Source: Candidatus Baldrarchaeota archaeon
Lineage (GTDB): Archaea > Asgardarchaeota > Baldrarchaeia > Baldrarchaeales > DXJG01
DNA length: 32,000 nucleotides
NCBI GenBank assembly: GCA_019056805.1
Contig: DXJG01000005.1
Coordinates: 1-32,000, forward strand
Direction of reading: 5' to 3'
The translations under genes and the position numbers were made by a program. The notes under the pieces were generated by a model that did no database searches, had not been told where the DNA came from, and worked only from the letters and a program-made list of their open reading frames with translations. This document shows, piece after piece, positions 1 to 8,045 of the stretch. Position 1 is the stretch's first letter. Each line of letters begins with the position of its first letter.

Positions 1-63
1 AATTCCTGGGCCGTCATGAATTGAGTATCTTTGTATGTTAAATATCAATCCTTTTATCGACAT
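1..63 (-). CDS. Glycyl-radical enzyme activating protein (radical SAM, PflA family), N-terminal 21 codons only; runs off the window
   Basis: Not in the ORF track. The reverse complement from ATG at 63 reads MSIKGLIFNIQRYSIHDGPGI, the typical start of GRE activases (GxIFxIQRxSIHDGPGIRT). It lies 64 nt downstream of the GRE on the same strand. Confidence 0.9.
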   Translation of the reverse strand, partial: MSIKGLIFNIQRYSIHDGPGI

Positions 64-127: not shown

Positions 128-2503
128 CTAGTATACTTCTCCATGCGCTGTTCTACCTATGATGTCATCTTGCAAGTCTTTGCTTAGCTCTACAAAATAT
201 GCGCAATAACCTGATACTCTTACCAAAAGCCACCTGTATTTCTCTGGATATTTCTGCGCATCTAATAACATTTCTTTATTTACTACGTTAAACTGTATGT
301 GGGCGCAACCTAATTTAACAAAACTTCTTAGGAAATCTACAAATGCATCTATTTTATCTAAGGCTCCAGGTGTGAACATCATGTTAAGTATTGGAAAACC
401 TATTTTCGCCCAGTCTATTTTTGATAACGATTTTAATACTGCTGTTGGCCCGTTTCTATCTGTTCCGTGAGTAGGGGATATAGCGTCAGACAACGGTTCA
501 CCAGCTTTTCTTCCACTTGGAAGTGCTCCAACCACCTTGCCGAAGGGAACATTGGATCCTAGTGTTAGAAATGTTACATCTCTAGCTCCTCTTCCTCTAT
601 AATTCACTTCTGCAACTTTCTTGTATTCTTCGAAAAGCATTTCTGCAACTCTTTTTGCAACTGAATCCACGTAGTCATCGTCATTTCCCCATTTTGGTGC
701 TCTATTTATTAGCATTTGTCTTAATTCCTCTTTACCTTCAAAGTTCTTATCTAATGCATCAAGTAATTCTTCCATTGTGAGTATTTTTTCGTCATATACA
801 AATTTTTTAATTGTTGCAAGCGAATTTACCACATCTGGAAAACCTGCTATACATGGATGGGCGGAAAAATTGTAGCGTGCACCGCCTATTGTTCGATCTA
901 AGCCCTTTTCTATACAACCATCTATGAGTATGGAAGCAAAAGGTGTTGGAGCTAATTCTGCATGTATTTGTTCAAGTAGTATGAAGGCTATTTGAGCTGC
1001 TTGGAAAAAGTAGGCGCACTGTTTTCTAAATGCTTCAAAAAGCTCATTAAAAGTTCTAAATTTTCTTGGATCGCCGGTCTTGGGACCAAGTTGCTTTTTA
1101 CCATACTTCCAGTATCCATTATTTAATGCAAGTTCTAACATTCCAGCTAAATTATAGAAGCCATAATAGTTGTATGCCGCATCGCCTATCGGATCTGGTG
1201 TATCACAACCGCAAAAACTTGCTGTTCTAGCTTCTTCAAACGGAAGTCCGCGATTAAGGTGATGTTTAACCTCTAGGTCTCCGTTAAAGATCGATGGATG
1301 TCCAAGCCCAGCTCTTACGAGTTCAGCCACCTTATATAGGAAGTCTCTAGGCGTATCTTCGGTTAAATGAACTCTTAGAGAAGGGTTTTGTAGCTTTACT
1401 TCTAACATAGCGTCGATGCAAAGATATGAAAGCTCATTTATAATGTCTTTTCCATTCTTTGAACGGCCTCCAAGTTCGAAGTGGAAAGATCGATATCCAG
1501 TGTGGTATTTTGCTGCGGTGTGAGATTTTAGTGAATAGTTTAGCCATCCAAATTTAATAAATAGACATTCAAGTAGTTCTAGGGCATCTTCTTTTGTTAA
1601 TCTCCCCTCTTCTATATCTTTTTTGTAAAATGGATACATGTATTCGTCGAAGCGCCCTGTTGAATATCCAATTCCACCTTCCTCTATATAACTTGCAACA
1701 AAAACGAACCAAAATGATTGTAATGCTTCATGGAAATTTCTTGCGGGATTTGCTGACACCCAGCTACATATCTCGCTAATTTTTAATAGTTCTTCTTTTC
1801 GTTGAGGATCAGTTTCTTTTTCAGCAAGTTCACGTGCTAGATTTGCATATCTTTTAGCCCAGTTGATTACAGCATCAATACATATCAGTGCTGCCTCATA
1901 GAACTGTTTGACTGCCTCATGTGGAACTTTTGCCAGTTTTTCTTTTATTTCTTCCTTTATTCCATTTAGTCCTTTATGAAGTACTTTTGGGTTAAATATG
2001 ACGTGTCCTGGACCTGAGCTAGCAAATGCACCTAAATTTGCTAGCTCAGTGTCCTTGGGAGGATATTCAAAGGGGTTCATGAAAAATACTTCTCTAATTG
2101 CTGGAGATAATCGATTAAACATAACTTCGTGTAGTGTTTTTCCTCGCCAATAGGGGAAAACCTTTTCTCTTAACACTTTTTTAGTTGTTTCATCTACTTC
2201 GGTTGGCTCATATTTCCTTGTGGGAAGTTCATCTAATACTTTTTCTATCCAATGAGCAACATATTCAGGGTAAAGAGGCGTTCCAAGTGGCTCAGTTGTA
2301 GGGGAACCAACGATCAATTCACCATCATCAATTATGATCGGCATTTCTTCTAACACTTTTTTGAAAGCTTTTGCTCTTCTTATTATTTGGGGTTCCCCTT
2401 CGGTTTCTCTGTAACTTTCTGTCACTAACACAGCTCTTGTAGCATCAAGCTTAGGTTTAGCTGTCCAAACTTTCTCTACTAACTTTCTTACTCTATGTCG
2501 CAT
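128..2503 (-). CDS. Glycyl radical enzyme (PFL2/eliminase-like superfamily), substrate unknown, about 791 aa
   Basis: C-terminal glycyl loop LLVRVSGYCAYF (RVSGY at 206-220), Cys loop FCGCDTP (1199-1213), GRFDEYMYPFY, LPSGRKAGEPLSDAISP. Start moved from 2593 to ATG 2503, which follows a GGTGGTGA SD. Confidence 0.93.
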   Translation of the reverse strand: MRHRVRKLVEKVWTAKPKLDATRAVLVTESYRETEGEPQIIRRAKAFKKVLEEMPIIIDDGELIVGSPTTEPLGTPLYPEYVAHWIEKVLDELPTRKYEPTEVDETTKKVLREKVFPYWRGKTLHEVMFNRLSPAIREVFFMNPFEYPPKDTELANLGAFASSGPGHVIFNPKVLHKGLNGIKEEIKEKLAKVPHEAVKQFYEAALICIDAVINWAKRYANLARELAEKETDPQRKEELLKISEICSWVSANPARNFHEALQSFWFVFVASYIEEGGIGYSTGRFDEYMYPFYKKDIEEGRLTKEDALELLECLFIKFGWLNYSLKSHTAAKYHTGYRSFHFELGGRSKNGKDIINELSYLCIDAMLEVKLQNPSLRVHLTEDTPRDFLYKVAELVRAGLGHPSIFNGDLEVKHHLNRGLPFEEARTASFCGCDTPDPIGDAAYNYYGFYNLAGMLELALNNGYWKYGKKQLGPKTGDPRKFRTFNELFEAFRKQCAYFFQAAQIAFILLEQIHAELAPTPFASILIDGCIEKGLDRTIGGARYNFSAHPCIAGFPDVVNSLATIKKFVYDEKILTMEELLDALDKNFEGKEELRQMLINRAPKWGNDDDYVDSVAKRVAEMLFEEYKKVAEVNYRGRGARDVTFLTLGSNVPFGKVVGALPSGRKAGEPLSDAISPTHGTDRNGPTAVLKSLSKIDWAKIGFPILNMMFTPGALDKIDAFVDFLRSFVKLGCAHIQFNVVNKEMLLDAQKYPEKYRWLLVRVSGYCAYFVELSKDLQDDIIGRTAHGEVY

Positions 2504-2885: not shown

Positions 2886-4181
2886 TCATATGTCTTTTAG
2901 AACTTCTCTATAGCCTTCCATGTCAAAGAACCCGTTTCCCGACACGTTAAAAACTATGACTTTTTCTTTGTTTTCTCTTTTCGCTTTAAGTGCTTCGTCG
3001 ATTGCTGCTTTTACTGCATATGCTGATTCTAAAGCTACTAGGACTCCTTCTGTTTGCAAAAATATTTTTGCAGCTTCGAGTGCTTCTTTTTCATCCAAGG
3101 CTATAGCATCAATTATTCCTTCATGTCTTAACAGACTTAATGTTGGTGATGAACTACTGCTTCTAAGTCCTTCTGCCCTGATTAGTGGAAGTTTAGTTTC
3201 AACACCTAGCGTGTACATTTTCATTAGGGGTAATGTTCTTGAGGGCTCTACGAAATCATAGCGATATTCTCCCTTAATTAGTGTAGGAGCTGCAGATGTT
3301 TGAACAACTAGAAACTTGATATTTCCCAGTTTTCCATCTAAATAATCTTTTATGAACGGATACGCCAATCCAGGGAAATTGCTTCCAGTTCCGCCACATG
3401 AGAGAACAACATCTGGACTTTTGTCAATAATTTCAAGTTGTTTCTTCGTTTCTAAACCAATAATGGTATGATGCATTATTACATGATTCATTCTACTACC
3501 CCAAATAGCAACAGTGTCATCATTATTTAATGCAACCTCAAAAGTTTCAGCATATGCAGTGCCTAAACTTCCTGGATGCTCCGGGTTTTCTTCCAAATAT
3601 TTCTTCCCTATTTTAGTTGTTTCACTTGGTGATTCAATTACCTTGGCATTAAGCATCCGAGTGTATGAAGCTCTCTCGCGCTTCATGCGACAAGCATGTC
3701 TAACCCAAAAAATGGTACAATCGAGGCTAAACATTGCTGCAGCAAAAGCAACTGCACTTCCAACCTGACCCGCGCCGGTAGGTGCTACTACTCTTTTAAA
3801 CCCCTCTTTATACGCGTAATAAACCTGTGGAATCATCGAATTCATTTTAAAACTGCCAGTAGGTGCTAAATCTTCACGCTTATAATATATACGGGCAGGG
3901 GTATTTAGAAACTCTTCAAGTCTCTTAGCTCTGTATAAAGGCCTTGGCCTTCCTATATGAATGTATAATTCTCTAACCTTATCTGGTATCGATATCCATC
4001 TTTCCTTCGAAAATTCTAGTTCAAGTGATGTTTTTGTGAAAAGTTTTTTCATTAGTTCAACCCTTGACACTCCTTTTTCAGGTTCTTTGTAGGGTGGTAG
4101 AGGTTTTGGCAAATCTGGTAGAATATTATACCAGTGTTTTGGTAGCTCATCAACCGGAAGGAAAATATGATTGTTTTTCAA
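2886..4181 (-). CDS. TrpB2-like PLP-dependent enzyme (fold type II), divergent active site
   Basis: Colinear with TrpB2: LPKHWYNILPDLPKPLPP, PARIYYKREDLAPTGSFK (PLP Lys kept), TGAGQ, GSNF, HPGSLG, VIVFNVSGNG. Probable TTG start at 4181 after a GGAGGG SD. Confidence 0.88.
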   Translation of the reverse strand: MKNNHIFLPVDELPKHWYNILPDLPKPLPPYKEPEKGVSRVELMKKLFTKTSLELEFSKERWISIPDKVRELYIHIGRPRPLYRAKRLEEFLNTPARIYYKREDLAPTGSFKMNSMIPQVYYAYKEGFKRVVAPTGAGQVGSAVAFAAAMFSLDCTIFWVRHACRMKRERASYTRMLNAKVIESPSETTKIGKKYLEENPEHPGSLGTAYAETFEVALNNDDTVAIWGSRMNHVIMHHTIIGLETKKQLEIIDKSPDVVLSCGGTGSNFPGLAYPFIKDYLDGKLGNIKFLVVQTSAAPTLIKGEYRYDFVEPSRTLPLMKMYTLGVETKLPLIRAEGLRSSSSSPTLSLLRHEGIIDAIALDEKEALEAAKIFLQTEGVLVALESAYAVKAAIDEALKAKRENKEKVIVFNVSGNGFFDMEGYREVLKDI

Positions 4182-6728: not shown

Positions 6729-8045
6729 ATGTCTGGGGAAAGGGAGGAAAAAATACCTCAGACATTTTGGGAATACCTTAAAGCTTGGGGACCCGGTATT
6801 GCAGCGGTATTAACTTGGGCTGGAGCTGGAGATCTCGTTGATTGCGCCGCAGCTGGTGCTAGCTATGGTTATGCCCTCATGTGGGCTCTAACAATTGCTC
6901 TACTTCTAAGAGGAGTTATAGTCTCTATAATGGCTAAATACGAACTTTGTAATCCCCACCGAGAAACCTTAATAGCAGCATACAAACGACTTGGAACCTG
7001 GGTTGCATGGATACTTATTGTTGCTTTCTTCTTCTATGCCCACATATACGGTGCATTTCTTCTAAAAGGTTCAGGAGTTGGACTATGGTTACTAAGCGGA
7101 AAAGCTGGAGGAGAATGGGGACTATTTGCCTGGTGTGTAGTACTAATGATAGTTGCAGTCCTCATATGGGGACAATGGGGACAAGGCAAATACAAGTACA
7201 TTGAATATCTGTTTAAAGTAACATTGGCCCTCATGACTATAACTTTCTTGGGAACAGCTGCAATTGCAATAGCAAGAAACCCCGCAGCCCTTGGAAAAAT
7301 GATTCTTGGAGCAATAGCCGTCGGCTGGATTCCACCAGGAGTTGGACCTTGGGAAGCAAGTTTCATGGCAGTTGCAACTATTGGAGCAATTGGAGGTTCA
7401 ATAGCGAACTTTCTCTATCCATATTTCATAAAAGGTAAAGGATGGACCGATGAAAGATACATAAAGGTACAAAGATTTGATCTGTGGCTTGCTATAATTG
7501 TTGTTATAATTTTGGATGCAGCAATTTGGACCGTAGGAGCAGAAATACTACATCCACAAGGTATTCATGTTACCTCGGTAGAAGACATAGCCTATGCATT
7601 GGTTCATATCGTCGGAACTGCCGGAGCAGTACTCGTATATGCAGGGTTATTCGTAACAGCTTATGATACATATATCGGTCTTGCTTGTGGTCTCTGTATG
7701 GGAGGTATCGACTCCATTCATCAAGTTATGCCAGAAAGAAAAGAGAAATACAAGAGTTACGAAAATGATCCATGGTACAGATATGCTATATACTATGCTT
7801 TGATAACGCCCATTATCTGGGCTTTACCAGGAATGCCAGGATTTATCTTCATGGTACTCTTCATGAATGCCCTCTCCGTCGTAATAATTCCAATAATTGC
7901 CATAGGACTTCTAATCATAGCCAACAAAGCAGAGTTCATAGGCGAGAAATATAAGAACAAGTGGTGGGAAAACCTATTATTGATTGTTATAGTGGCAATC
8001 GCGCTCTGGAGTACCTACCATTTAATAATGTCCTTCATTAAGTAG
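6729..8045 (+). CDS. Nramp-family (APC fold) transporter lacking the metal-binding DPGN motif
   Basis: About 11 hydrophobic segments. N-terminal WGPGIAAVLTWAGAGDLV...GASYGYALMW is the Nramp-like signature region, with GAGD in place of DPGN. Confidence 0.75.
   Translation: MSGEREEKIPQTFWEYLKAWGPGIAAVLTWAGAGDLVDCAAAGASYGYALMWALTIALLLRGVIVSIMAKYELCNPHRETLIAAYKRLGTWVAWILIVAFFFYAHIYGAFLLKGSGVGLWLLSGKAGGEWGLFAWCVVLMIVAVLIWGQWGQGKYKYIEYLFKVTLALMTITFLGTAAIAIARNPAALGKMILGAIAVGWIPPGVGPWEASFMAVATIGAIGGSIANFLYPYFIKGKGWTDERYIKVQRFDLWLAIIVVIILDAAIWTVGAEILHPQGIHVTSVEDIAYALVHIVGTAGAVLVYAGLFVTAYDTYIGLACGLCMGGIDSIHQVMPERKEKYKSYENDPWYRYAIYYALITPIIWALPGMPGFIFMVLFMNALSVVIIPIIAIGLLIIANKAEFIGEKYKNKWWENLLLIVIVAIALWSTYHLIMSFIK

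Follow-up and report, generated by a model that had tools for sequence, protein, structure and literature searches.

A glycyl radical enzyme clade with two cysteines and no glutamate in its Cys loop, examined at the locus of an Asgard archaeon

Background

What chemistry should be expected of an oxygen-sensitive glycyl radical enzyme (GRE) whose catalytic loop follows neither of the two patterns by which the family is read? The question is raised by the gene at positions 128 to 2,503 of a 32,000-nucleotide stretch of DNA from Candidatus Baldrarchaeota archaeon (assembly GCA_019056805.1, contig DXJG01000005.1), which we call the window and which forms the first 32 kb of its contig (C13 in our numbering) in an assembly of 1.92 Mb and 18 contigs. 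Classification and reaction prediction of GREs rest largely on the Cys loop, where a CXE motif stands for eliminases, isomerases and hydroxyphenylacetate decarboxylase (HPAD), and a CC pair stands for formate-lyases. In fact the six C-O eliminases, the C-N and C-S eliminases and the three isomerases all keep CXE, with the Glu hydrogen-bonded to the substrate (PMC13450708). The window enzyme belongs to a clade with a conserved C-x-C-x-T-P loop, which breaks both rules and contradicts the textbook statement that two loop cysteines occur in pyruvate formate-lyase (PFL) and TdcE only.

The matter also touches the metabolism of Asgard archaea, in which GRE genes are frequent (in 213 of the 300 genomes sampled from the phylum, about 70%) and are commonly annotated as 2-oxoacid formate-lyases, while for no PFL-like GRE of archaea has a function been proven and all PFL-like GREs of characterised function were bacterial as of June 2026 (PMC13450708). 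The significance of the clade has its limits, as it is extremely rare and as loops without Glu are common among uncharacterised GREs.

The enzyme and its two radical loops

The features on which the argument depends are as follows.

128..2503, minus strand: glycyl radical enzyme with PFL-like and Gly_radical domains, a member of the rare clade with the Cys loop C-[G/A]-C-[V/D]-T-P
1196..1219, minus strand: Cys loop S429-F-C431-G-C433-D434-T435-P436, with C433 as the Cys of the thiyl radical, T435 in place of the CXE Glu and, in addition, the clade-invariant C431
203..223, minus strand: glycine loop V-R-V-S-G765-Y-C767, the radical storage site, with C767 clade-invariant
1..63, minus strand: GRE activating enzyme (radical SAM), first 21 codons, cut by the contig end

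By its residues the Cys loop is outside every characterised GRE class. A preliminary description of this DNA had reported an intact glycyl loop RVSGY and a Cys loop SFCGCDTP with Thr at the Glu position, Asp at +1 and a second Cys at -2, and both readings hold. HMMER alignment to CutC (9f3w) and glycerol dehydratase (1r8w) sets C433 against the catalytic Cys, D434 against a Val and T435 against the CXE Glu, so that C431 comes to stand at -2, the 1r8w chain numbering being that of the literature residues C433, E435, H164 and D447. The same register was obtained from MAFFT with 120 and then 268 homologues, as well as with PflB, PflD and YbiW of E. coli, whose sequences were taken from the K-12 record. 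C433 thus stands in one column with glycerol dehydratase C433, the catalytic Cys of CutC and PFL C419, and this column is invariant in 268 sequences. The C-x-E motif of eliminases and isomerases is absent, each of the seven clade members having Thr435 where the Glu would be, and so is the adjacent Cys pair of formate-lyases (C418-C419), since one residue stands between C431 and C433. The glycine fingerprint R-V-x-G-[FWY] is present as R-V-S-G765-Y, and as the radical Gly765 is kept, the protein is not of the aminoacyl radical enzyme type in which Ala, Ser or Thr replaces Gly. The residue two places after it, C767, stands at a position where 87% of other GREs have Ser.

The reading frame itself is clear: the minus-strand frame codes for 791 amino acids from an ATG at 2503, which has GGTGGTGA 5' of it. 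A plus-strand reading of 128-2503 yields stops only and was rejected. In Pfam the protein matches PFL-like (PF02901) over its full length with 677.8 bits and Gly_radical (PF01228) with 93.6 bits. In NCBIfam it narrowly qualifies for the broad PFL2-3 subfamily (691.3 bits, cut-off 678.2) and reaches none of the equivalog cut-offs, neither those of HypD (662.7 against 1100), HpsG (656.5 against 1000), CutC (617.5 against 1050), PflD (541.5 against 1109) and HpfG, nor that of the formate-lyase TIGR01255 (146.9 against 994.2), nor those of the HPAD and IAD decarboxylases, NF033715 (338 against 1150) and NF033718 (471 against 1100).

A rare clade with an invariant loop

Relatives of the enzyme are few. 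Among 5.8 billion clusters at 90% identity, we found one twin of 96% identity and five relatives at 54-60%, the next sequences being at most 49% identical, so that the clade consists of seven such clusters with the window GRE included. When 1.84 billion representatives at 50% identity were scanned exhaustively with HMMER, the clade amounted to a single representative (1092 bits), followed by scores of 801 and then 688. A pattern scan of 185,579 species genomes (one for each species), which finds close relatives only, gave nothing above 36% identity with clade member P0004 as query. In 300 other genomes of the same phylum no GRE is more than 43% identical to the window GRE, and three genomes of the same genus (82-91% complete) have no match to it.

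All seven members, at 54-96% identity, read C-[G/A]-C-[V/D]-T-P and RVSGYC. Cys431 (-2), Thr435 (+2), Cys767, H334, E343, R377 and H379 are invariant, while position +1 varies, with Val in place of Asp434 in four of the seven; the Asp at +1, which the preliminary description had stressed, is therefore no part of the signature. Because the Cys at -2 and the Thr at +2 are invariant across this range of identity, the motif is a signature of the clade and no chance or sequencing oddity.

The clade has a support of 100 in both FastTree and IQ-TREE (LG+C20) trees, where it lies deep within the eliminase-like radiation, apart from E. coli PflD and YbiW. Both trees join it, with support of 99-100, to uncharacterised lineages without the loop Glu, namely P0008/9 (GCPAV) and P0123 (GCPHP), and Arg377 is common to all of these and rare elsewhere. 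The named anchors of the trees were E. coli PflB, PflD and YbiW together with best-score labels 'HypD-like' and 'CutC-like' only, and none of 10 representatives of the nearest clusters reached any NCBIfam equivalog cut-off. The expectation that the enzyme would cluster with no characterised GRE is thus borne out: it sits in a fully supported clade of its own.

Unusual loops were seen elsewhere in the same set of sequences. The orphan GREs P0158 and P0168 have C-x-C with the Glu kept (CSCAE and CGCSE), so that two-Cys loops outside PFL and TdcE are not unique to the clade. In P0059, P0117, P0145 and P0190, moreover, the glycine fingerprint is replaced by RVSTY, RVATY or RVATW, of the threonyl radical enzyme type as in PMC11528403, and P0059 also has a GCITP loop without Glu.

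The activating enzyme

That an activase follows the gene directly had been claimed before, and the window itself makes this only marginally visible: after a gap of 64 nt downstream of the GRE come 21 codons with the N-terminal signature of GRE activases, and then the contig ends. The claim is supported by the metagenome locus L015, where a GRE 96% identical to the window GRE is followed 58 nt downstream by a complete activase of 303 amino acids with CX3CX2C and two ferredoxin-like Cys clusters; 18 of the 21 activase residues in the window are identical to its start. The GRE and the complete activase of this orthologue make a concrete, expressible target for new radical chemistry.

The remainder of the window activase is unassembled because the genome has two activase paralogs, about 82% identical, which evidently broke the assembly at four contig ends. 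In fact a second activase start of about 82% identity lies at the end of contig C14 (C14:31931-32050), and contigs C17 and C18 each begin with an activase C-terminal half. A search of the genome for a second GRE or a full-length activase gave a single PFL-like gene only, with the activase split over contig ends. The second activase has no adjacent GRE and has a BMP-family binding protein upstream, and the C-terminal halves on C17 and C18 are followed by an HdrA-like or a thioredoxin-reductase-like gene.

Structure model and active site

The AlphaFold2 model of the GRE has a pLDDT of 94.8 and superposes on solved eliminases and isomerases with TM scores of 0.91-0.95 at 30-38% identity, the scores being 0.94-0.95 for glycerol dehydratase, CutC and HypD (35-38%). 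The nearest solved structures are glycerol dehydratase and propanediol dehydratase at 37-38% identity. Pocket positions were mapped through the numbered 1r8w alignment, the structure paper of HypD (PMC7077986) and the PflB alignment, with the following correspondences.

His167: glycerol dehydratase H164, HypD H160, CutC D216, PFL R176
Gly279: glycerol dehydratase S282, HypD D278
His334 (clade-specific): glycerol dehydratase F333, HypD S334, PFL F327
Ser339: HypD D339
Phe340: glycerol dehydratase Y339, HypD F340, PFL W333
Tyr446: glycerol dehydratase D447
Phe449: PFL R435
Phe645: glycerol dehydratase Y640

All the mapped positions, together with R377, H379, E343, D441 and D642, are identical in the seven members. 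Because the substrate-contact positions among them do not vary, the clade is probably isofunctional. This homology mapping of the pocket puts no acidic residue at a known substrate-contact position. A relocated acid was also sought as an enrichment of Asp or Glu in GREs lacking the loop Glu over those having it, and none was seen at the pocket-mapped positions, the signals looking phylogenetic.

The model has a turn at 432-434 between the strands 429-431 and 435-437, and Cys431 and Thr435 are for this reason expected side by side, on the face that bears the Glu side chain in eliminases. The arrangement of C431, C433 and T435 is analogous to that of N437, C439 and E441, which the finger loop carries in class I ribonucleotide reductase.

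Genomic context

The neighbours of the GRE in the window that matter most for its function are these.

2886..4181, minus strand: TrpB2-like pyridoxal phosphate (PLP) enzyme, upstream of the GRE, with the same arrangement in L015
4207..4641, minus strand: DUF6917 protein, with which the left arm begins; the GRE locus of P0005, a clade member, has a 50%-identical copy
6729..8045, plus strand: Nramp-like transporter in the divergent arm

The gene order DUF6917, TrpB2-like, GRE, activase is the same in the window and in L015. Compared with TrpB2 of Sulfolobus (6hul_B), the TrpB2-like enzyme reads GSFK for GSHK, with loss of the His, and VAPTGAGQVG for VTETGAGQWG, with loss of the catalytic Glu, as well as GGTGSN for GGGSN and EGLRSSS for GGLRYHG. 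The enzyme has probably ceased to be a tryptophan synthase and has likely been repurposed for beta-replacement or beta-elimination in the same cluster as the GRE. A non-coding gap of 382 nt (2504-2885) separates the two genes. A riboswitch or conserved leader was sought in it and no credible Rfam match was obtained; conservation of the gap is poor even in comparison with the locus of the 96% orthologue. The GRE probably has its own promoter. As for DUF6917, a search of the ESM Atlas returned DUF6917 clusters only, mostly bacterial; the gene is missing from several loci of the clade and is frequent in bacteria without GREs.

The divergent arm of the window and of its 96% twin codes for a V4R-like protein, a GidA-like flavoprotein, the Nramp-like protein, DUF6282, the electron-transfer flavoprotein (ETF) EtfBA and an acyl-CoA dehydrogenase (ACAD). 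The Nramp-like protein is 38% identical over its full length to one at L019:4932-6221, which stands after the GRE-activase pair of the sister clade P0008, and it is a candidate transporter of substrate or product. The Nramp subfamily that recurs beside GREs without the loop Glu likely carries an organic solute rather than a metal. In the sister clade itself (L019-L021) the loop is V-G-C-P-A-V-Q-L-P-C and the order GntR, GRE, activase, Nramp-like, TauE is conserved. The P0008 enzyme is possibly a desulfonating GRE that works without the CXE Glu.

Three loci of the clade have the order tctC-tctB-tctA-GRE-activase. One of them (P0003) adds genes for an acetate/butyrate-kinase-like protein, a phosphate-butyryltransferase-like protein, a ferredoxin and a four-subunit 2-oxoacid:ferredoxin oxidoreductase, and another adds a class-V aminotransferase, a PrpD-like protein, an enzyme of the mandelate racemase/muconate lactonizing enzyme (MR/MLE) family, RidA and DUF6917. 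A GntR/FCD regulator is present in one clade locus, and the locus of P0006 has an aldolase like fructose-6-phosphate aldolase (FSA) and a PfkB kinase. Against the PDB, substrate hints were limited to generic binding proteins of tripartite tricarboxylate transporters (TTT) for TctC, and DUF6282 gave no match. Altogether the neighbours point to an imported small anionic organic acid and to a link with 2-oxoacid or acyl-CoA fermentation.

The Asgard setting and the origin of the gene

The rest of the window is archaeal housekeeping, with ribosomal proteins L10/P0, L12, L1, L11 and S19e, Spt5, FtsZ, FtsY, prefoldin and eIF6, and its GC content is uniform (0.32-0.39); therefore the GRE is genuinely on an archaeal contig. 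It was probably acquired horizontally together with neighbouring genes and has since been ameliorated. A bacterial source is suggested because relatives in the clade occupy loci with TctCBA, the phosphate butyryltransferase Ptb and the acetate kinase Ack.

The GREs common in Asgard archaea are of another kind. They come in two sister forms with the loops SGCVETG, which is CXE, and SGCVT[I/V]S, where a Thr replaces the Glu beside a single Cys, and they group with HypD-like sequences far from the clade. Although often annotated as 2-oxoacid formate-lyases, they lack the two-Cys motif of PFL and TdcE.

Proposed mechanism and its alternatives

We regard it as very likely that the window gene codes for a real and active GRE which uses Gly765 and Cys433. 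That the gene is instead a decaying or non-catalytic homologue kept after horizontal transfer, as one might think of the sole GRE of a genome with no match in three genomes of its genus, is highly improbable in view of the intact frame, the conserved Gly and Cys motifs, the adjacent activase, the high-confidence model, the 96% orthologue with the same operon and a predicted pocket invariant in seven members.

It also seems fairly probable that the chemistry of the enzyme departs from the CXE paradigm. The route that we favour, tentatively and at something short of even confidence, is a lyase- or isomerase-type reaction on an organic acid, in which Cys431 and Thr435 together with His167 and His334 would form a relay in place of the Glu. 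The activase would install the radical on Gly765, from where it would pass to Cys433, and the Cys433 thiyl radical would next pull a hydrogen atom off a small anionic organic acid, brought in by the TctCBA or Nramp-like transporters whose genes lie beside those of the clade and its sister clade. The following step, a bond breaking or a rearrangement, would proceed without the loop Glu that characterised eliminases and isomerases use as the base, and Cys431 and Thr435, at i-2 and i+2 around the Cys433 turn, would serve with His167 and the clade-specific His334 as a proton or hydrogen-atom relay. The outcome would be a 'two-thiol' variant of lyase or isomerase chemistry. Its product or precursor might feed a 2-oxoacid fermentation, with the PLP beta-eliminase and RidA acting upstream, and with 2-oxoacid:ferredoxin oxidoreductase, phosphotransacylase and kinase, or ACAD and ETF, acting downstream of the GRE product. 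A directly catalytic part for Cys431 is, taken separately, plausible without being probable.

A bolder form of the proposal would make this the first GRE outside PFL and TdcE with a catalytic second loop Cys, with a reaction new to the eliminase-like radiation, and also the first PFL-like GRE from archaea to which a function could be assigned, its host being an Asgard archaeon of a lineage for which a life by 2-oxoacid fermentation has been proposed. We consider this rather unlikely; the candidates would be a convergent 2-oxoacid formate-lyase or C-C lyase, or an enzyme that isomerises or epimerises an organic acid through a two-thiol hydrogen-atom relay.

Several observations weigh against the relay that we favour. 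Cys431 replaces a Val, Ile or Ser, which is a conservative change, and the clade has several other lineage-specific Cys substitutions, so that Cys431 may not be catalytic. One of three acids specific to the clade (E343, D441 or D642) could take the place of the loop Glu. The word 'invariant' has limited weight for a clade that makes up only four or five independent lineages. A Thr at +2 is found also in other GRE clades that have no second Cys. The genomic contexts of the clade are heterogeneous, one of them with the FSA-like aldolase and PfkB kinase, and none names the substrate. As to novelty, a Glu is missing at +2 in 56 of the 268 nearest sequences, which are mostly representatives at 50% identity and which have T, S, H, D, Q, G, A, R or Y there. 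Loops without Glu and extra cysteines both recur in the unexplored part of the GRE family and are no singularity. The preliminary description had gone as far as proposing a new GRE class with different chemistry. Of this the distinct, conserved loop in an orphan clade stands, and a new class would go further than the findings; the loss of Glu is not rare among uncharacterised GREs, being shared with the sister lineages and the Asgard SGCVT form. The clade is one of many orphan GRE lineages and not a unique anomaly.

The alternative that survives best is an ordinary 1,2-eliminase or isomerase with a neutral Cys431, where the base would be His167, His334 or a relocated acid, or would be unneeded because of a good leaving group (sulfite, phosphate or an amine). 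It accounts well for the 35-38% identity and the TM score of 0.94 to eliminases, and for the retention of the dehydratase His (glycerol dehydratase H164) as His167. The TauE/SafE-family exporter after the sister-clade P0008 GRE suggests sulfite release, the GRE clusters neighbouring the clade have done without the Glu in about 20% of cases and with many different replacements, and the one member beside an FSA-like aldolase and a sugar kinase recalls PflD and YbiW. On the other side, the Glu is needed in every characterised eliminase and isomerase, with E491 of CutC, E436 of HypD and E470 of IslA essential; the polar residues by which glycerol dehydratase holds the hydroxyl groups (S282, Y339, D447 and Y640) are replaced in the window GRE by Gly, Phe, Tyr and Phe; and Cys431 and Cys767 are invariant across 54-96% identity. 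We place this alternative on the unlikely side.

The second loop Cys calls to mind a convergent 2-oxoacid formate-lyase like PFL or TdcE, in which the radical would pass from Cys433 to Cys431, Cys431 would add to the carbonyl of a 2-oxoacid, formate would leave, and CoA would resolve the acyl-enzyme to an ATP-yielding acyl-CoA. The E. coli tdc operon combines a PALP-family enzyme, RidA, a transporter and a phosphotransacylase with a kinase, and the neighbours of the clade, taken together, mirror this logic; the clade loop C-A-C-V-T-P resembles the A-C-C-V-S-P of PflB in the alignment of the E. coli sequence, and ACAD and ETF genes lie within the window. Asgard archaea have, moreover, been proposed to use 2-oxoacid-formate lyases (PMC7015854). 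What makes this reading unlikely is that the second Cys is at -2 and not at -1, that the pyruvate-binding arginines of PFL are absent (R176 becomes His167 and R435 becomes Phe449), that the PFL equivalog scores only 147 against 994 bits, and that the clade lies deep inside the eliminase-like radiation. Furthermore, none of the clade loci showed a formate channel or a formate dehydrogenase, and the P0003 locus already has a 2-oxoacid:ferredoxin oxidoreductase.

A chemistry that needs no base at all, either the hydroalkylation of an unsaturated acid as by the X-succinate synthases or the decarboxylation of a carboxylic acid by hydrogen-atom transfer, would fit the loop without Glu, the aromatic-rich pocket mapped by homology (F340, F342, Y444, Y446, F449 and F645) and the carboxylate transporter genes that adjoin the GRE in clade loci. 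It is quite improbable, as benzylsuccinate synthase (BSS) and (1-methylalkyl)succinate synthase (MASS) are only 29-30% identical to the window GRE, no locus has genes for small beta or gamma subunits, and the decarboxylase equivalogs remain far under their cut-offs, the clade not branching with those families.

Comparison with known glycyl radical enzymes

The X-succinate synthases differ both in the low identity of the BSS and MASS alpha subunits (29-30%) and in their small Fe-S beta and gamma subunits, genes for which are listed neither in the window nor in the seven related loci. PFL and TdcE have in common with the clade the glycine loop RVSGY and a neighbourhood of the tdc type. They differ in having adjacent cysteines where the clade has them at i and i-2, in Arg176 and Arg435, which bind the 2-oxoacid carboxylate and align with His167 and Phe449, and in a very distant sequence (133 bits to 1h16).

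The isomerases PflD, YbiW and HplG stand about as far off as the eliminases, with 30-36% identity to the window GRE, and the P0006 locus with its FSA-like aldolase and sugar kinase resembles that of E. coli, where ybiW is beside fsaA; the isomerases keep CXE and the clade does not. Among the lineages without the loop Glu, P0008/9 and P0123 are sisters of the clade and have Arg377 in common with it, P0008 having also an Nramp-like neighbour, whereas the Asgard SGCVT form has the missing Glu in common but is unrelated within the family. A Cys at -2 together with a Thr at +2 sets the clade apart from all three.

The closest likeness is to the GRE 1,2-eliminases (B12-independent glycerol dehydratase, 1r8w; 1,2-propanediol dehydratase, 5i2g and 9rco; CutC, 5fau and 9f3w; HypD, 6vxc; IseG/IslA; and HpsG). 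With these the window GRE has in common the fold (TM 0.91-0.95, 35-38% identity), the catalytic Cys at the loop tip, the His of the G-H motif (His167, which is His164 of glycerol dehydratase), the glycine loop and, to judge from the L015 orthologue, a dedicated adjacent activase with a ferredoxin-like insert. It differs from them in its archaeal host and, with the clade, in Thr435 for the CXE Glu, in the extra Cys at -2 and in the exchange of the glycerol dehydratase residues S282, Y339, D447 and Y640 for Gly, Phe, Tyr and Phe.

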